A stretch of 64,000 nucleotides of DNA from Saccostrea echinata (GCF_033153115.1 NW_026889782.1:62001-126000); one strand, 5' to 3'. Counted from the stretch's first letter, positions 23,859-31,539 are shown. The notes: generated from the sequence alone by a model not told the origin. Numbers and translations: made by a program.

Positions 23859-24542
23859 TTATATAGGTTGGTAAATGATCATCTCCTCACCCGGGAGGAT
23901 ACGAGACCTTAGTTGATACTCTCTGTTTTGTGTTGGTTCTAAACAAACATGCAAGTAACCGAAATTTGGTCGAGTTGCGGATTCGTATGCCGCTTTGAAA
24001 AAGGGGACCTGTCCTGGTAATATCTGAGATCCAAAAGTGATGATCTGTCTAGAATCACGGTAATTCTTAAACAAAATGATATTGAGGCAGTTCAATGAAA
24101 TGGTCCTTGCATATTTTCCCGGAGGATATAGGTTCTGGGACAACATCACTGTGGTCACGTTTCTGTGATGAGATGTCACCGTGAACAGATGTACACAGTC
24201 CTGAGATTGTGCAACTTGTAACATGAGATCATCCAGTATCAGTATGGTGTGATCCATACCCTCGGTGTACTGTTCTATGTCTTCTTTAGAAGGCAATCCT
24301 TGGTGTAATGATAAGTTTGGTATCGTCTGCACCATTTCCTCAAACATAGGTTGATGTTCAGAATAAGCATACACTATTCTATCCACAGGTATGGAAAACA
24401 TACCATTAGCGTTTTGTAAAAGTTTTTTAGTAAAATGCGTTTTTCCGCTTTGTGTACTACCACATATTAAAATGGTGGTAGGTGCAGAAAAAGGTAGCAA
24501 GGAACGGCTGTTCCACCATTTATTCATACTCTCTGTTTCCAT
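23859..24542 (-). CDS. A32/FtsK-like DNA packaging ATPase
   Basis: Walker A GSTQSGKT, Walker B ILILDD, SHHRN and LSQN motifs typical of Polinton ATPases. Confidence 0.95.
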   Translation of the reverse strand: METESMNKWWNSRSLLPFSAPTTILICGSTQSGKTHFTKKLLQNANGMFSIPVDRIVYAYSEHQPMFEEMVQTIPNLSLHQGLPSKEDIEQYTEGMDHTILILDDLMLQVAQSQDCVHLFTVTSHHRNVTTVMLSQNLYPPGKYARTISLNCLNIILFKNYRDSRQIITFGSQILPGQVPFFKAAYESATRPNFGYLHVCLEPTQNREYQLRSRILPGEEMIIYQPI

Positions 24543-24649
24543 GTTTCTCAGTCGCCAGACTTTTTCAAAATGAAGTTAGGTGCTATGTCACACACATATA
24601 AATATTTATTCAATTATAAAATAACTCCTGTATATACTTTTCATGATTT

Positions 24650-25117
24650 TTAATGATACATAAAATATTCATGCATAAAACTTTTTACAAAACCATCATT
24701 AGATTGAATGTCATTAGAAAATAAATCATACACATGACTGAACGAGTTTTTTAAACACAATCTTGCAATTAGAAATACTAATACATAAAGTCCACATAAG
24801 TCGGAATTACGAGGTTGAAGTCGAATGGATTTGAAACGACAATCAACACTGTTCATTTTCACAAAGTTTTGTATATCTTGACTGTAATCAGCTGGGGATT
24901 TTCCAAGGCTGTCGAAGAACTCTGCTTGCAATGGACTGTACACGATGATTGTCACCCAGTGTTCTCCGGGTAATGGTAAAGGTTGTGTATTGACGATAAA
25001 GGCGCTTGGAAATTCTGTAACCCTTTGAGGCAATATATTACTAGCAAATACACCTTTGACGTAACGTCTTAAGCATGGATTTGTCTTCACCATATTTAAA
25101 AGATGCGTTGAATTCTT
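24650..25117 (-). CDS. Adenain-like cysteine maturation protease
   Basis: GEHWV (His), FFDSLG (Asp), LQP..SDLCGLY (Gln/Cys). Annotated ATG at 25093; probable original start at 25117 (now AAG). Confidence 0.93.
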   Translation of the reverse strand, partial: KNSTHLLNMVKTNPCLRRYVKGVFASNILPQRVTEFPSAFIVNTQPLPLPGEHWVTIIVYSPLQAEFFDSLGKSPADYSQDIQNFVKMNSVDCRFKSIRLQPRNSDLCGLYVLVFLIARLCLKNSFSHVYDLFSNDIQSNDGFVKSFMHEYFMYH

Positions 25118-26430
25118 GGTTGAATGTAGTTAATGTCACGTGATTTGTCAACCTCAAGTAGGGATGAAAAAGTTGCAAATACAATGGCATTGACAGCTTT
25201 GGTTGTTGCTTGTTTGAATTTCAATTCCAGTCTGGTGTTTCCCCTACAAATCAGGTTTAAATACTCTTCTCCAAATCCACAAGGATCTATCGTAAACACA
25301 AAAAGTGAGTATCCATTTCCAAAATTATCACGAGAGATAATCAGTCCAGCATCGTTGTTCCATTTCCCAGAGGCTTCAAATAAACGAGCATAGGCGGCTG
25401 AATAATGTCCTGCCGTAAAGTCCGTCTTCAGTGGTCTTCCAGGTACGCTTTCTCCGTTGACGTATATCCCGATATCTGTTAATCCCATATGCTCGAAATT
25501 AAAGGGGTTGGCTGTGTAATCCCCATTCACAGCTTTCTGGTCCACCAGAGCCACCACGATTCGATCGGGTACTGCCTGTGGAAATATATTGTCCCAGTAA
25601 AACTCGGTAGATCCTTTGGGTATGGTATTCATTTTTAGTTCATTTCTTGATATGGTATACTTTACAGGGGTGGATTCGATCTGTTTACTATGGTTCAGCA
25701 GAACACCTGGATCAACACGTACTTTGGCCACTTTATACACGACGTCTTGTAATTCTAACTTGTAGGCTGGTGTAGAAGCGGCAGACATGATGACAAAAGG
25801 GGCACTGGATCTAAAGAGTTTGATGTAGATGTCTACTCCGTTTATCAAGTATTTATCTATATCAAAGATATCTTCCATCAGGTTCCCTTCCAGCTCAAAG
25901 ACTTTACTTTCCTGAGTGTAACCATACCGCAGGACCAGACCGGCATTGCCTCCATTGTATGCATTACCGTCGGCAAGATTTCCCTCGTCTTTAAAGAACA
26001 GCTCAGATTGTTTTTGTGAATTGAGTTCGTCTTTCCCGCTGAACAAAATTGTTTTGAGATAAGCCTTCCACGGGTAGTTATTGGTATTGAAAGAGACCAA
26101 TTTGTTGTTCAAGTAGACATCCATTTGGGAGAACATGCTTTGTAGAGGTAAGTTCACTACACCAGTTTCTTCGTTTGCTGCCAGTGCCGATCCATCTGCT
26201 TTCAGAATTCGGGCTTTTACGTATAGTTTACTTCTTTTTAAATCAATGTATTCTGCTCCTGAGCCTGACACTACGATCTCAATGGGTGTGTCAGACACTC
26301 CTATGCTAGAAATTGGTCTTGCTTCTGTAAAATACACTTTCTCGACCGCTACTTGGTTTGTGGGGGATGCAAAAAGAGAGAGTTCCATTGGTTGTGCTAT
26401 GTCTTTATTATCACTGCTTAAAAATGCCAT
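25096..26430 (-). CDS. Major capsid protein (double jelly-roll, Polinton PY)
   Basis: 444 aa; ELSLF..P, YIDLKRSKLYVK, NNYPWKAYL, P.RIVVALV..AVNG..NPFNF motifs; position between protease and minor capsid. Confidence 0.92.
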   Translation of the reverse strand: MAFLSSDNKDIAQPMELSLFASPTNQVAVEKVYFTEARPISSIGVSDTPIEIVVSGSGAEYIDLKRSKLYVKARILKADGSALAANEETGVVNLPLQSMFSQMDVYLNNKLVSFNTNNYPWKAYLKTILFSGKDELNSQKQSELFFKDEGNLADGNAYNGGNAGLVLRYGYTQESKVFELEGNLMEDIFDIDKYLINGVDIYIKLFRSSAPFVIMSAASTPAYKLELQDVVYKVAKVRVDPGVLLNHSKQIESTPVKYTISRNELKMNTIPKGSTEFYWDNIFPQAVPDRIVVALVDQKAVNGDYTANPFNFEHMGLTDIGIYVNGESVPGRPLKTDFTAGHYSAAYARLFEASGKWNNDAGLIISRDNFGNGYSLFVFTIDPCGFGEEYLNLICRGNTRLELKFKQATTKAVNAIVFATFSSLLEVDKSRDINYIQPRIQRIF

Positions 26431-26432
26431 TT

Positions 26433-26948
26433 TTACAGCTTGAAGATACTTCTGTAGCTGTCAATATTAAATTCTTTCTTTTTTCTAGACTGTGTTTTCT
26501 TGCTTGGCACTCGTCGCTGTTTCTTAACAGACGTCTTTTTCTTTTCTCCGGTGGTCTTTCTTTGTTTGGGTTTAGATGCCTGTTTTCTCCTCGGAGTTTG
26601 AGATGTTGTTGGCTTCAATTTCTTTGAAGGAATGACAGAAGATTCTGTACGTGGCCTTTTTATACTTCCCTGCACTTTGACAAATGGAGCTCCCTCTTTT
26701 ACATCCTTGGCATGTTCCACTTTAGCTCTTTCCTCCACGGCAGCTACAGGGGTCACTTGAGTGCTGTTTTCTACTGATTCTAACTGTGAGTGAGGCCTCA
26801 GTGGAATGACATAAGACTTGTAACTTCTCACACCTCTCCCAATTTGTTTTGGTTTGTATTTGTAAGGGTTGAATTTTTTCTCTGCCATGTTCTTGTAGAA
26901 AGCTTCCCATATTTTGGGATCGCTGATGTAGGTCTGACTATTCATCAT
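26433..26948 (-). CDS. Lys/Arg-rich putative DNA-condensing core protein
   Basis: 171 aa, very basic C-terminal half, QIGRG motif; ATGA overlap with the upstream minor capsid stop. Confidence 0.75.
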   Translation of the reverse strand: MMNSQTYISDPKIWEAFYKNMAEKKFNPYKYKPKQIGRGVRSYKSYVIPLRPHSQLESVENSTQVTPVAAVEERAKVEHAKDVKEGAPFVKVQGSIKRPRTESSVIPSKKLKPTTSQTPRRKQASKPKQRKTTGEKKKTSVKKQRRVPSKKTQSRKKKEFNIDSYRSIFKL

Positions 26949-27367
26949 AAAACGTAAGGAAACTTTTTGAAATGAAGTGTTACAGTCACCGGTCCGTTTA
27001 AAAATGAAACTAAATTTCCTTCTCTGTCCGTTATATATATAGCAATCTGCTGTAATTGGCCAATTTTAACTGGAATGTAATAAGGTAGTGTGTAAGTGAT
27101 ATTTTCTGGTTTCTCTCCCAGGTATATGCGTCTTAGGAGGGGTGCCTCTTTCCCCCCAATAATTGTTTCCTCACAAATATCGCAACACACAAACAATTCT
27201 GATTTCTTCTTAGATGAAATCCAGCTCTCTGTAGAAAATTCTGTCAAGGCAACAGTCCAATATCCGTCAAATTGAATCTGTTTATTTAATTGAACTCGGA
27301 AGCAATGGGGTTTATTTTCAAAATATTCAGAGCTGTCCGTAGACGTCAATACCATTCGAACGCTCAT
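26945..27367 (-). CDS. Minor capsid / penton-like protein (single jelly-roll)
   Basis: LTS..S.EYF.N....F.V.L, W.VAL.E, LFVCCDI......G....LLR, PYYIPV, VTLHFKK pattern. Likely start is MSVRM at 27367. Confidence 0.85.
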   Translation of the reverse strand: MSVRMVLTSTDSSEYFENKPHCFRVQLNKQIQFDGYWTVALTEFSTESWISSKKKSELFVCCDICEETIIGGKEAPLLRRIYLGEKPENITYTLPYYIPVKIGQLQQIAIYITDREGNLVSFLNGPVTVTLHFKKFPYVL

Positions 27368-27402
27368 CTTGAATAGAGAGAAATTGCAGAAAATGGTGGC
27401 TT

Positions 27403-28561
27403 TTATTGTTTTTCGAGAGAACTCTCTGGAATCCATGAATTAAATTTCTTGGGCCATCCTTCCCATTTAACATAAACTTCATTGGTTGTACCACGACGCC
27501 TTCTTTTAAGTATTTTCTCCACTCTATAAGAAACATCTTCTGACTTTACGACTTTTTGAAGCTCAGACTCGTAGAAAGTACCTTCTATAGGGTCATCTGC
27601 CAAATCTTTTACTTTGTACACAGGTACTTGACCTCTTTTGTATCTTTCACTCACTTTAAAAAACTCTTCTGTCCATTTCTGCTGGTAGTCTCTTTGGAAA
27701 GGGTGTTTTAGCTGTGATATTCTGACATTATCTCCAATTTTTAATTTGAAAAAGGGTTTTACTCTTTTTTGCACTTTTTTTTTGCTTGAGTTTTTAGGCT
27801 GGTTCAGATCGTTTTTTGCCAGGTCTGGTTTTGTTTTCCCCGACAGATAAGCCGCTAGTCTTATTTCATCGGCATTCTCTTGCTTAACATTGGCTGGAGC
27901 ATTCCCCCCTAATGATCTGTGAGGTCTATTGTTGTAACTTTTCACCAAGTCTTGCAAGACATTCACAAAGCGGTAAGTTCGGTTCTTCATAAAATAACGA
28001 TACATTAGGTTCTTCATGGTACGAATAACCCTCTCGGCATAGTTTGCTTTTGTTTCATTTTGAGTGTACATGACGTTTATTCCCTCTTTCTTCAGAAATG
28101 TCTTTACCCAACGATTTTTAAATTCACTACCCTTATCTGTTCTAAGGGTCTTAGGTTTTCGTCCTCTTTGGAAAACTGATTTTAAACCGTCAACAATGTT
28201 TTGATGATGTTTATTTTTTAAGGGGATTATAAATAAATATCGGCTAAATATGTCAATAAGCACTAATAAGAATTTATAACCATCGTTATGGGATGCGATG
28301 TTTGAAACGTCTGCCAAGTCACCATCCCACATAGAATCGATCGTGTTCACTATCACCTTTGAACGCGGAAATTGTTTTACGAATGGGTTTATACAGACTA
28401 TAAGAATCTTCATTGTTTAAAAACTGTCTTATCCTTCGTCTACCAATCTTGTATTTGCCTTCCTTTTTAACAGCCTGATATAATTTTTCAGGCCCTGCAT
28501 ATGCCCCCGGTTTACCGGGAGTGTAGTAGAGCTCCCTCAAGTAATCCGTGTAGTCTGACAT
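27403..28561 (-). CDS. Retroviral-like DDE integrase with C-terminal chromodomain; one frameshift near 28371-28378
   Basis: N-terminal YY.P..PGAYAG; catalytic WDGDL, RTDKGSEF, AERVIRT; chromodomain YRVEKILKRR...VKWEGWPKKFNSWIP. ORFs 28319-28561 and 27403-28413 join by removing one base. Confidence 0.93.
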
Positions 28562-28834
28562 ACTGGAACATACTAACGATCTCTCTTCGACAGTAACATT
28601 TTATATCATTGTAAAAAAAAATACATCGCACGTTTGGAACTAGTTTATTTTGATATTGTTAGAATAAAATGATAACACAANNNNNNNNNNNNNNNNNNNN
28701 NNNNNNNNNNNNNNNNNNNNNNNNNNNNNNNNNNNNNNNNNNNNNNNNNNNNNNNNNNNNNNNNNNNNNNNNNNNNNNNNNNNNNNNNNNNNNNNNNNNN
28801 NNNNNNNNNNNNNNAATTATTTTAGTGTTCATTG

Positions 28835-29818
28835 TCATTCAAGATCACTCTCGATGGTTTCCATGTCTGGTAAATCACCCGCGTTACATTCCATCGACAT
28901 GTTGTCTTGTGGGTCGTAGCCAAAGGGGGTACATTCGGGACAGCTTAACATTCCAAGTTGATTTTGATGAGACTCACTGAGCATGCAAAGTTCAACGTCC
29001 TTTAGTTCTGGAACATATTCATGCATCTCCTCGATGACATCTCTAAGTCTGACAAATTTGTTTTTGTTCAGAGTAACACCTTTCCTTGTAGGTATAGGTT
29101 CTTGAACATTTTCTGGCTTCCAGAAGTGTCTTATGTCCACTGTCGGATAGCCTGGTGATAATGAAACGAACACACCTCCACCAACATGCCACTGTGCTTC
29201 TTCATCCTCTTTTCCAGTATTGTCTATGTAGTCTTGAATATCTGGTAAAAGAGATTCAAACTTTAACCAACGGGCTAAAGGAAAGGTAACTCCCTTCTTG
29301 GTGGCAATGAAACGACCATGTGATTCTGCGAGGTGACGGATGTGAACGTAAATCTCCCCCTTGAAAGGCATGACGGTGAGGAATAGATCATTAAAGTCGT
29401 CCAAACTTATCCTACATCTTGGCTCCTGAGACTGTTGATGATCAGCTTTCTTTGATTCGTTTCTGGAACCTCCTCTTTCTTTAGTACTGACGACTAATGA
29501 TCTTGCCATGACCAGCTTCTTTTCGTACTCAGACTTTGTGTCATCATCCTTATTCATCAGGAGTCGGGATAAGTCAGCTTGATTGGCTTTCATCAATGCC
29601 GTTCTAAGCCCCATAAAAGCTCTCGAACCTCGACGTAAAATGATGCTGATCAATTTCCTGTTTTTGTCATAGCTGGTTTTCTCAGCGTCTATCTGTTGTC
29701 TCATTTCATCAGTAATTATGTTTGAGGCGTAAAGATGCCCCGCAACAGGAACAGCCATCATTTTCTTCACCAATGTTGAGTAGTTTGACTTAATCACGTC
29801 TTGATGTTTTTGCTCCAT
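28835..29818 (-). CDS. CARD - PC4 - PC4 - Cys/His Zn-finger protein
   Basis: The first ~90 aa fit a CARD pattern (VIKSNYSTLVKKM...HLYASNIIT.EM...I.AEKT...KNRKLISII.RRGSRAF..L..AL..NQ.DLS.LL). Two PC4/Sub1 repeats (V.PFKGEIYVHIR...TKKGVTF...W; VDIRHFW...PTRKGVTL). C-terminal C..SESHQNQ....SCPEC. Confidence 0.85.
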   Translation of the reverse strand: MEQKHQDVIKSNYSTLVKKMMAVPVAGHLYASNIITDEMRQQIDAEKTSYDKNRKLISIILRRGSRAFMGLRTALMKANQADLSRLLMNKDDDTKSEYEKKLVMARSLVVSTKERGGSRNESKKADHQQSQEPRCRISLDDFNDLFLTVMPFKGEIYVHIRHLAESHGRFIATKKGVTFPLARWLKFESLLPDIQDYIDNTGKEDEEAQWHVGGGVFVSLSPGYPTVDIRHFWKPENVQEPIPTRKGVTLNKNKFVRLRDVIEEMHEYVPELKDVELCMLSESHQNQLGMLSCPECTPFGYDPQDNMSMECNAGDLPDMETIESDLE

Positions 29819-29888
29819 CTTTGTTGACGATAAGGATCTCACAAGGAGATTTGCTCAAGACTGATGAAAATTTTCAAAATGTTACAAG

Positions 29889-30062
29889 TTTATATATGAT
29901 TTAAGTCACGTGGCTCGTGACTGTAGACTCCCCCATGACGTCAGTGACTGTAGACTCCCCTCATGACGTCAGTGACTGTAGACTCCCCCATGACGTCAGT
30001 GACTGTAGACTCCCCTTAGAATGCGACTTTTCTCTAAACTGACTGTAGAAATTTGATGACTG
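29889..30062 (-). promoter_or_regulatory. Putative promoter of the CARD-PC4 gene: TIR-like repeat with 3 CRE sites, E-box and TATA
   Basis: ~27-bp repeats GTGACTGTAGACTCCCCCATGACGTCA; TGACGTCA at 29936, 29964 and 29991; CACGTG at ~29907; TATATAAA (minus) at 29889-29896. Confidence 0.7.
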
Positions 30063-30090
30063 TAAAACACGCTGGCTGTATATTTTGGCA

Positions 30091-30306
30091 TTACAGATCT
30101 TTATGGGTGTCCAGGTTTTGTGCATGAGATTGAGTTATTATTTGTAAATGTTTCTCCAGTATAGGACTTAAAATTTTTGATGCATGATTTATTCTTCTTT
30201 TAAATCGATATCTGTCCAAAGCCATGGTCATCCATTCTCCCTTCCGATCTTCATAGGGAATAAGGATGATCGTTTTTTTGTCTGAAAATTTCACAGTCTT
30301 GTCCAT
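30091..30306 (-). CDS. DP71L/ICP34.5/PPP1R15(GADD34)-like PP1 regulatory subunit (eIF2alpha phosphatase adaptor)
   Basis: KTVKFS (RVxF) followed by RKGEW...ALDRYRFKRRI....ILSPIL, matching the RxGxWxxxAxDRxRFxRRI signature. TATATAAA at 30350-30357. Confidence 0.88.
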   Translation of the reverse strand: MDKTVKFSDKKTIILIPYEDRKGEWMTMALDRYRFKRRINHASKILSPILEKHLQIITQSHAQNLDTHKDL

Positions 30307-30350
30307 TATCCCTCTTCTTTGACAATTCTACATTTTATTCCTGCAACGCT

Positions 30351-30791
30351 TTATATATGATTTTGTGCTTTTAAAATAGATCCATCCATATGATCTACAG
30401 ATGCTTTTAAGTACTGCCACTGTGTTTTACTCAAGGTAATTCCTTCGTTCCCCGGTTTTCCAGACTGAAATCGTCGTATGTCAACCTGTATGGTGTCATT
30501 GGCACATATCATGGCATATACTTCGTTGGAGAGTGGGTACCGATCCACGTATGAACATGTTTTAATTACATCTTTTTTCAATGTAGGGCGTAAAACACAG
30601 TCTACTTGGGTAGGTTTTTTCTTCTCGTGTAAAACACTGACAGCGATGCACAAAGAAATAATAAGTACAATCGCAAAAAAGCTAGGTATTACAATCGCGA
30701 TTTTTTTCTTCAACTTCTCTTTTAACATCCCTTTGCACTCATTACCACAATCACTTGTTAGAAGTTCCATCATTACCATTTGTTCAGCCAT
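30351..30791 (-). CDS. Transmembrane protein with C-terminal PC4-like domain
   Basis: KKK followed by hydrophobic IAIVIPSFFAIVLIISLCIAVSVL; later VDIRRF...KPGNEGITLSKTQWQYL (PC4 signature). TATATAAA at 30832-30839. Confidence 0.75.
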   Translation of the reverse strand: MAEQMVMMELLTSDCGNECKGMLKEKLKKKIAIVIPSFFAIVLIISLCIAVSVLHEKKKPTQVDCVLRPTLKKDVIKTCSYVDRYPLSNEVYAMICANDTIQVDIRRFQSGKPGNEGITLSKTQWQYLKASVDHMDGSILKAQNHI

Positions 30792-30881
30792 CTTTAAACA
30801 AAATGTTTTTGCTAGACTACTGCATTGCACATTTATATACATATGACCTCCGTGGGCGGGGTTTTGGAAAACCCCCTGATG

Positions 30882-31145
30882 TCAACTTGAACTGTACAAA
30901 TCAGATTCTCTTAAGACCTGTGGAAAGTATTTTTTCGGCATAACCCTACGTTTCAATATGTATTCTTCAGATCCCCAGCTGTCTGCAACGTCATAACCAT
31001 TTTTCATTTTTTCCTTGAAATCAACAATGCAATCTTCCTTTCTGTCAAACCATTGACTTTCTTGTAAAGTCCATTTCTTTTCATTTCTTCTTAAAGCATT
31101 CCAGGCTAAAATTTTCCATTTGTACTGCTTTCCCTGAGTTGCCAT
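30882..31145 (-). CDS. Trp-rich hypothetical protein (87 aa), first ORF inside the right TIR
   Basis: ATG GCA start, co-oriented with its neighbours; no recognisable domain. Confidence 0.55.
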   Translation of the reverse strand: MATQGKQYKWKILAWNALRRNEKKWTLQESQWFDRKEDCIVDFKEKMKNGYDVADSWGSEEYILKRRVMPKKYFPQVLRESDLYSSS

Positions 31146-31201
31146 CGTTATTACAAGGCAACTGAGATTTACAAGGTATTTATTCTTATTTTTTAAAAAT
31201 G

Positions 31202-31451
31202 TCAGTGACTGTAGACTCCCCATGACTGTAAAATCGTATGACCTCTAATGTTTGGAAAACCCCATGACGTCAGTGACTGTAGACTCCCTGACTGTAGACT
31301 CACTCTTTGCACTAAGGGAACCCATGACGTCATTGACTGTAGACTCCACCCTTGACTGTGACCTCTATTTTGACCTTTGTGGGTGGGGTCTGGAAAAACC
31401 CATGACGTCATCCTGACTGTAGACTGACTGTTCTCTGTCCCCCTTACTACT
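31202..31451 (-). repeat. Polinton right terminal inverted repeat
   Basis: Reverse complement of the left TIR: 60 bp perfect, ~250 bp imperfect. Confidence 0.95.
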
Positions 31452-31539
31452 ATAGATCTAAATTTGCATCCCACTAACGGCAATGGTGATGTCTCAATAT
31501 GAGTGAAAAAGTCTCGAGAGGTACCTTAAACAAACAAAA
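31452..31539 (+). mobile_element. tRNA-derived SINE, 3' part
   Basis: Continues the SINE consensus (AAATTTGCA...ATATGAGTGAAAAA.TCTCGAGAGG...AAACAAACAA). Confidence 0.9.

Follow-up and report, generated by a model that had tools for sequence, protein, structure and literature searches.

The right arm of a Polinton/Maverick element in the oyster Saccostrea echinata carries four open reading frames (ORFs) on the minus strand, between the integrase gene and the right terminal inverted repeat (TIR), all enclosed by the element and its 6-bp target duplication. They were analysed within a 64,000-nucleotide stretch (GCF_033153115.1, NW_026889782.1:62001-126000), hereafter the window (Table 1). On balance we lean towards regarding this arm as a variable region, in which ORF2 would encode a counter-defence adaptor and lies beside MOSUB, a gene of adintoviruses, to which a CARD has been added (ORF1), likely as a one-sided decoy in a caspase pathway. 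A preliminary description of the same DNA had located the four co-oriented ORFs correctly and interpreted them as a compact set of counter-measures of a true virus, directed against translational shut-off and CARD-dependent signalling. Below, G000 denotes the genome of this oyster, and L and C numbers the loci and contigs examined.

ORF2, previously described as DP71L-like, can be regarded as a convincing adaptor of the DP71L/PPP1R15 type, as all the sequence hallmarks are present. It matches DP71L of African swine fever virus (ASFV) at an E-value of 2.1e-5 as a single sequence and 2e-12 as a profile, and it also matches PPP1R15B and PPP1R15A. The Pfam family PF10488 matches all 21 rows of the ORF2 family (best E-value 6.8e-8); a relative with a 169-codon frame scores 29.9. 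The putative PP1-docking motif RVxF is represented by KTVKF, aligned with KHVRF of DP71L (V5 and F7 with V16 and F18), with K3 and F7 found in at least 90% of the 21 rows, while R21, G23, W25, D31, R32, F35 and L50 are invariant and build the R-x-G-x-W...DR-x-RF core and the LSAVL-type helix, in which LSPIL of ORF2 corresponds to LSAVL. In DP71L, binding of PP1 and function depend on both LSAVL and the residues of the RVxF site (PMC5346070; PMC10743859). ORF2 shares with DP71L, the avipox protein SWPV1-205 and the core of PPP1R15A/B (PF10488; PDB 9nb9, 4v0u, 7nzm) the same minimal adaptor of about 70 amino acids (aa), comprising RVxF, RKGxW, DRxRFxRRI and the LSAVL-like helix; unlike them, it is encoded by an integrating Polinton of about 20 kb in a mollusc. 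The core is identical to a PPP1R15-like exon of the host at 14 of 29 residues and to the avipox protein at 18 of 29, and the linker IPYED differs from that of the oyster's own exon and is nearer to the avipox one, so ORF2 is no recent capture from this host. A search with the ORF2 profile retrieved 194 proteins; among the 120 listed there is one named virus protein (Shearwaterpox), the others being unnamed or hypothetical (names on ORF2-related clusters: 0 of 10 looked up). In G000, PF10488 has at least 87 matches, 150 of 220 candidates having been scored. Ten of the adaptor sites were viewed with long flanks: one lies by a capsid gene 46-56% identical to that of the window, two by capsids about 33% identical and three by capsids 26-35% identical; three others have no core hit and one is likely a host exon. 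These capsids represent three families besides that of the window element, so that no fewer than four distantly related Polinton families in G000 carry the adaptor.

The segment G000:C1:28497237-28497452 (L110) is probably the terminal exon of PPP1R15 in the host; a splice acceptor immediately precedes its VHF. Loci L104-L109 and many 169-codon frames belong to a dispersed Polinton family, with a capsid about 28% identical to that of the window and the adaptor core placed behind a long N-terminal extension. In L100-L103 and L113-L114 the adaptor and a CARD-less MOSUB occur twice, inverted and 15-17 kb apart, and the interval yields no hit to a core Polinton gene; such pairs probably form the long inverted repeats of some derived element.

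For ORF1, the suggested architecture CARD-PC4-PC4-zinc finger is borne out. Pfam recognizes the CARD with 48.2 bits (cut-off 23.9) and two PC4 stretches with 50.3 bits; the two beta4-alpha PC4 repeats are supported by Pfam, the structure model and fold matches, the model being confident across the CARD and both repeats. The residues C278, H284, C293 and C296, predicted to bind zinc, are conserved in 42-43 of 42-43 filled rows. The best viral fold match is MOSUB of a lancelet adintovirus (E-value 1.2e-5), and the PC4-PC4-zinc part of ORF1 is best identified by sequence and fold as MOSUB, a known adintovirus gene usually devoid of a CARD. The tandem PC4-like fold is common to ORF1 and the adintovirus MOSUB of Starrett et al. 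(PMC8502044; BFVD A0A5H3CIS2, A0A5H3CT48), which is labelled beside the terminal repeat on the adintovirus maps (Suppl. Fig. S2 therein); unlike that protein, ORF1 has an N-terminal CARD in a bivalve lineage, and the main text of PMC8502044 mentions neither a PC4 nor a CARD domain. ORF1 also matches PURA repeats I-II, human PC4 and the PC4 homologue of phage T5, both by fold and by the PC4 strand sequence DIR-x-x-W, and differs from all of them by the added CHCC motif and CARD.

Most relatives of MOSUB have no CARD: the PC4-PC4 profile is common to 2330 clusters, and among the best 150 of these a CARD profile is matched by 17. Of 111 full-length PC4-PC4 matches, 77 have fewer than 60 aa upstream, too short for a CARD. 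A CARD-less MOSUB adjoins the adaptor in another Polinton family of G000. A quick tree places 16 of the 19 rows with a CARD in a single branch of 24 (SH-aLRT 95), and the three found elsewhere may represent separate gains or repeated losses. Carriers of CARD-MOSUB are on record for Saccostrea, Crassostrea, Ostrea, Pinctada and Mytilus, with the Polinton context checked in G000 and L051-L055; on the evidence of sequence, the CARD is an old bivalve addition to MOSUB. Protein-primed polymerases replicate by strand displacement. Because the strands are displaced and the protein has the PC4 fold (PMC7549692), ORF1 is likely better read as a replication protein that would bind single-stranded DNA (ssDNA).

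A distantly related CARD-PC4-PC4 gene that lacks the zinc motif occurs in G000:C57 (L035, L155, L161), about 6.5 kb from another Polinton, whose polymerase has no tblastn match to that of the window. It is possible that CARD-PC4-PC4 was exchanged between Polinton groups.

The CARD itself is modelled as a six-helix death fold (predicted local distance difference test, pLDDT, of 80-95 over aa 1-90) that superimposes on the Apaf-1 CARD with a root mean square deviation of 0.8-1.0 A. The preliminary description set it against CARD-dependent signalling, through the RIG-I-like receptor (RLR)/MAVS route and caspases, and the RLR/MAVS part of this is not supported by the profile comparison with solved, mostly human CARDs: RAIDD is matched at 1e-10, Apaf-1 at 2e-9, CED-3 at 8e-9 and caspase-9 at 5e-7, as against 3e-3 for MDA5; CARD8 and Dronc likewise rank far above MDA5, and neither MAVS nor RIG-I figures in the top 60 of 81 matches. 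At the level of profiles against these solved structures, the element CARD is closer to the RAIDD/Apaf-1/caspase CARDs than to those of RLR and MAVS. Its position 27 aligns without gaps with D27 of Apaf-1. Of 41 host CARDs, 27 have D at this site, as against mainly G, E or R in the element CARDs, which have also lost the acids at 23, 24, 31 and 41 and retained R54, K55, R62 and R63. The mean net charge is +7.2 in 32 element rows versus -2.5 in 41 host rows, the host CARDs being aligned at low scores. The type I interface of caspase-1 consists of D27 and R55, and the D27G substitution mimics the capping inhibitor INCA (PMC7830601). The loss of the acidic face together with the INCA-like change at D27 therefore makes a one-faced decoy the preferred reading, to which we would give slightly less than an even chance, because binding of DNA would suit the basic surface just as well, the element CARDs share their ancestry and the host alignments have low scores. 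Loss of the acid at the D27 site is common, at the level of sequence, to the element CARD and the CARD-only inhibitors INCA/CARD17, COP and ICEBERG; unlike these stand-alone proteins, the CARD described here, known from its sequence, is fused to a DNA-binding protein and encoded by an element.

With 150 of 154 candidates scored in G000, there are 111 Pfam CARD matches, of which 55 are CARD-MOSUB copies (matched by hand, with broken copies included and intron-split CARDs missed); 48 of these 55 lie on contigs C33, C5, C36 and C6. The host CARD nearest to that of the element among 42 loci (53 bits versus 37 for the next one) is a 91-aa CARD-only frame at G000:C29:2742897-2743172 (L059), which is a candidate donor or target.

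Comparison of copies decides the claim of a compact cassette. There are 13 near-full right arms with 87-100% identity to the window. A set of 41 ORF1-holding arms (38 from G000 and three from contigs of the European Nucleotide Archive, ENA) includes 13 chosen for their likeness to the window; from this set L014-L020 (partial or duplicates), L026, L035-L038 and L051 were left out. ORF2 is present in 38 of the 41 arms, ORF4 in 35 and ORF3 in 21; in the 28 diverged arms the respective numbers are 25, 22 and 8. The gene order varies, ORF4 is sometimes duplicated, two types of the adaptor, about 46% identical, alternate between arms, and two other ORFs replace ORF3/ORF4 in 8 and 3 of the 41 arms. 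The accessory genes of the right arm thus vary from copy to copy, in a swapping zone with no fixed counter-defence cassette. The replacing ORFs, L042:3497-3913 (138 aa) and L044:6081-6566 (161 aa), belong to no Pfam family.

The two remaining ORFs are optional, and neither gives evidence of counter-defence. ORF3 was described as a membrane-spanning protein with PC4; the 19-residue hydrophobic helix (Kyte-Doolittle, KD, 2.95) is there, and the PC4 match remains below the threshold (21.8 versus 25). The simplest function to imagine for the protein might be that of a membrane anchor for nucleic acid or for a partner with PC4. ORF4 was said to be of no recognizable kind, and it is still so: it has no Pfam family, its best Atlas score is 0.86, BFVD yields no match at E<=0.001 and the best Z in VIA-align is 4.7. 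It is net basic, and a beta-beta-alpha-beta fold is predicted for it with modest confidence. Its identification with the phage uracil-glycosylase inhibitor p56 was rejected: the Z values of 4.6 and 4.1 are too weak, and p56 is acidic. ORF3 and ORF4 would be interchangeable extras.

The ORFs are kept in sister copies, and their ratio of nonsynonymous to synonymous substitutions (dN/dS) is not neutral, two points on which the preliminary description had staked its case. In a motif-based test of the 38 own-genome arms, intact genes were found in 26 of 38 cases for ORF1, 27 of 35 for ORF2, 19 of 20 for ORF3 and 23 of 32 for ORF4. A motif test of the integrase scored 8 of 33 as intact; at some loci this conflicts with another result, and the value was disregarded. 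Pairwise dN/dS, calculated according to Nei and Gojobori for pairs that are not independent, is 0.11-0.20 in five pairs for ORF1 (one further pair saturated), 0.09-0.21 in four diverged pairs for the CARD (one saturated), 0.08 and 0.09 in diverged pairs for ORF3 and 0.20-0.37 in five pairs for ORF4 (one saturated). For the whole of ORF2 it is 0.23-0.60 across eight pairs; in its 48-codon core, the proportion of nonsynonymous changes is lower than that of synonymous ones (pN<pS) in 66 of 66 pairs, with a median dN/dS of 0.24 among 44 unsaturated pairs. All four ORFs are under purifying selection between diverged copies, with dN/dS below 1, as are the integrase (0.05-0.13) and the capsid (0.02-0.06 in four of four pairs).

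We propose the following scenario. ORF2 is predicted to recruit the host PP1, leading to dephosphorylation of eIF2alpha, and would very probably serve to maintain translation when the host eIF2alpha kinases fire during lytic replication. The tandem PC4 unit, to judge from its model, probably coats the strands displaced by the protein-primed polymerase. By analogy to human INCA, the basic CARD may dock on acidic host CARDs without extending the filament, a step we consider a little short of evenly balanced. A bolder version, in which we have distinctly less confidence, would make bivalve Polintons replicating viruses with a two-arm counter-defence kit that is new for the group, i.e. a switch of the DP71L type present in at least four families and an ssDNA-coating MOSUB, whose one-faced CARD caps caspase-activating platforms of the host at the site of replication.

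Several observations weigh against this scenario. Binding and activity of the ORFs are predictions from sequence and models. ORF2 of the window alone scores 18.4, under the PF10488 cut-off of 26.1, and one of its whole-gene pairs has a dN/dS of 0.60 (confidence interval, CI, 0.33-1.14). No selection is visible in the closest CARD pair (dN/dS 0.54, CI 0.1-2.45), and the closest ORF3 pair has a dN/dS of 1.33 (CI 0.36-3.8; 10 versus 2 changes). The 32 element CARD rows are not independent, as they descend from one common ancestor, and the distant ones are less basic (0, +1, +4, +5, +7, +11). The mean conservation of the CARD, 0.73, equals that of the PC4 repeats (0.72 and 0.75), and therefore a structural role fits as well as a decoy. 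As to viral life, IMG/VR holds no relative of the PC4-PC4 (ORF1) profile, the adaptor profile or the capsid; an RNA-labelled run (X2) has reads over genes and spacers, the TIR and the flank junctions without distinction, a pattern expected of DNA; and a raw-read run (X15) gave 57 reads, 52 of them less than 90% alike.

It is conceivable, if unlikely, that the CARD has no immune role and is a basic oligomerization or DNA-binding module for cooperative coating of ssDNA, with ORF2 as the sole counter-defence gene. The CARD is always fused to MOSUB here, is as constrained as the PC4 repeats and has a net charge near +7 that suits nucleic acid, and PC4-like proteins commonly form higher-order assemblies (PMC7549692). 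However, the majority of MOSUB relatives manage without a CARD, and loss of the acidic face would disfavour self-polymerization via the usual charge-paired interface. The opposite view, an AIM2-like trigger in which ssDNA clusters the CARDs and activates caspases, so that particles are released or cells infected by another virus are killed and the integrated copies serve the host, agrees with the architecture of death fold plus nucleic acid-binding domain, with the abundance of such copies among the CARD matches of the genome and with the intact state of most ORF1 copies. Yet it is very improbable: selection is seen between subfamilies and not among recent copies, ORF1 is broken in 12 of 38 arms, the adjoining adaptor is pro-survival, and a one-faced CARD should be a poor nucleator.

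The model of the preliminary description, taken as a fixed set of four genes with which a true virus blocks both shut-off and signalling by RLR/MAVS, is likewise improbable, if less so than the trigger. CARD-based RIG-I/MAVS signalling does exist in oysters (PMC5557890), the capsid is under strong constraint and the ORFs have TATA boxes of their own; against it stand the preference of the CARD profile for RAIDD, Apaf-1, CED-3 and caspase-9 over MDA5, the variable content and order of genes, with no link of ORF3 or ORF4 to defence, and the lack of a virion and of an IMG/VR virome record. Finally, it is scarcely credible that the ORFs are functionless fragments of host genes hitch-hiking in the element. 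Many copies are broken and no transcript has been demonstrated, but the low dN/dS between diverged copies already largely refutes this possibility, and the limited identity of the adaptor core to the host exon, with its different linker, and the spread across five bivalve genera speak against it as well.

We therefore retain the variable arm with an adaptor and a CARD-bearing MOSUB, and with it a restrained view of the viral status of the element. Purifying selection on the capsid is the argument used for vertebrate Mavericks (PMC8097293); it is matched here, and is the sole argument for viral status in the present case. To this extent the claim of a true virus stands; neither a free genome nor a transcript was found in its support. 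Of seven ENA metagenome contigs retrieved, three (L052-L054) end before the terminus, and none is recognizable as a free genome. No sequencing run contained half of the query words, and reads mapped from 4 of 15 runs gave a signal that is DNA-like or negligible, with no transcript demonstrated.

The novelty of counter-defence as such is reduced by adintoviruses, for which the host-modulating genes Bcl2, IAP and Oncoid have been described (PMC8502044). Together with GasderminX, these resemble the ORFs of the window in being accessory to animal Polintons and in having cell death or the cell cycle as their target; the host-modulating set as given in that source lists neither a translational-control adaptor nor a CARD. 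Among the top-ranked results from the open literature, Repbase not being covered, there is no report that Polintons encode an eIF2alpha-phosphatase adaptor or a protein in which CARD and PC4 are fused, and terms for such genes are absent from the accessible text of PMC11131425, PMC11071296, PMC11296320 and PMC11874512. The adaptor is a known type of protein in a carrier for which no report was found, and CARD-MOSUB unites known parts in a new way. An eIF2alpha-phosphatase adaptor is most sensible in an element that makes much protein at a time when the host tries to stop translation; it would thus lend independent support to a lytic viral phase of Polintons and offer a handle on the antiviral role of eIF2alpha kinases in molluscs. 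CARD-MOSUB would join a replication protein to the control of cell death, and its partner would mark an anti-DNA-virus pathway of oysters. NCBI records list CARD-MOSUB proteins as uncharacterised host loci. As about half of the CARD matches in G000 are element copies, counts of immune-gene expansion in oysters may be inflated. Similarly, the adaptors appear unannotated and therefore may be absent from catalogues of DP71L orthologues. Table II of bioRxiv 2025.02.28.640897 comprises 391 orthologues.

Three of the ORFs had been credited with a TATATAAA box of their own about 40-70 nt upstream. Measured from the start of the word, the distance is 51 nt for ORF2 and 48 nt for ORF3, as proposed, and 78 nt for ORF1, outside that range. 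Three such words are observed upstream of the ORFs and 0.2 expected, and three were reached in 2 of 2000 mononucleotide shuffles; a TATA-like word occurs 63-111 nt upstream of ORF1 in 39 of the 41 arms. ORF3 likely starts at 30791 and not at the ATG at 30842, because the latter falls upstream of its TATATAAA box. A stress-feedback loop via the cAMP response element (CRE)-like TGACGTCA words upstream of ORF1 was considered and rejected as a family trait, since these are limited to 14 of 41 arms.

Table 1. Features of the Polinton/Maverick element, in window coordinates
Feature	Position	Strand	Remarks
Whole Polinton/Maverick element	7605..31451	.	AGTAGT...ACTACT termini; ATAGAT flanking at 7599-7604 and 31452-31457
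Left TIR	7605..7886	+	four TGACGTCA (CRE-like) words
Protein-primed polymerase B	15681..23130	+	intron 18661-21528; frame break near 22430-22462
Virion module	23859..27436	-	minor capsid-like and basic core-like ORFs, major capsid, protease, ATPase
rve integrase and chromodomain	27403..28561	-	split over two frames here
ORF1, 327 aa	28835..29818	-	CARD and MOSUB (PC4-PC4-CHCC motif)
Predicted zinc site, aa 278-296	28931..28987	-	C-x5-H-x8-C-x2-C; sequence motif
Tandem PC4 repeats, aa 134-272	29003..29419	-	predicted single-chain PC4 pseudo-dimer; PURA repeat I-II, PC4, MoSub1 matches
CARD, aa 1-90	29549..29818	-	basic, acidic face lost
TATATAAA upstream of ORF1	29889..29896	-	
TIR-like repeat upstream of ORF1	29936..29998	.	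three TGACGTCA words; 14/41 arms, mostly the window's subfamily
ORF2, 71 aa	30091..30306	-	putative DP71L/PPP1R15-type adaptor: KTVKF, RKGEW, DRYRFKRRI, LSPIL
TATATAAA upstream of ORF2	30350..30357	-	overlaps final ORF3 codons
ORF3, 146 aa	30351..30791	-	membrane helix and one weak PC4-like repeat; optional
TATATAAA upstream of ORF3	30832..30839	-	
ORF4, 87 aa	30882..31145	-	no family recognized; optional, doubled in some arms
Right TIR	31202..31451	-	three TGACGTCA words

In other respects the element is an ordinary Polinton, with TIRs that have AGT ends, a 6-bp target duplication, a protein-primed polymerase B, an rve integrase, a packaging ATPase and a double jelly-roll capsid. The Pfam cut-off is passed by DNA_pol_B_2 and rve, with Pox_A32 (the ATPase) and the double jelly-roll-like capsid slightly below it; the minor capsid, core protein and protease are presumably such, named from motifs and gene order, with no Pfam cut-off passed. 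The integrase and the polymerase of this copy have one frame break each. The polymerase intron holds a 2.7 kb insertion (18764-21467) with 21-nt inverted ends, which is missing in four sister copies. A left-arm gene at 11493-13406 on the plus strand, with GT-AG introns, a hydrophobic leader, a Cys-rich exon, Thr-rich repeats and a membrane helix, is also found in two C6 copies, with a similar ORF near L035; exon-like pieces bearing the YSP word lie at about 8700-10120 on the minus strand. The left flank and target sequence of L167 (G000:C6) are identical to those of the window element, and L003 is probably a duplicate of the window insertion.

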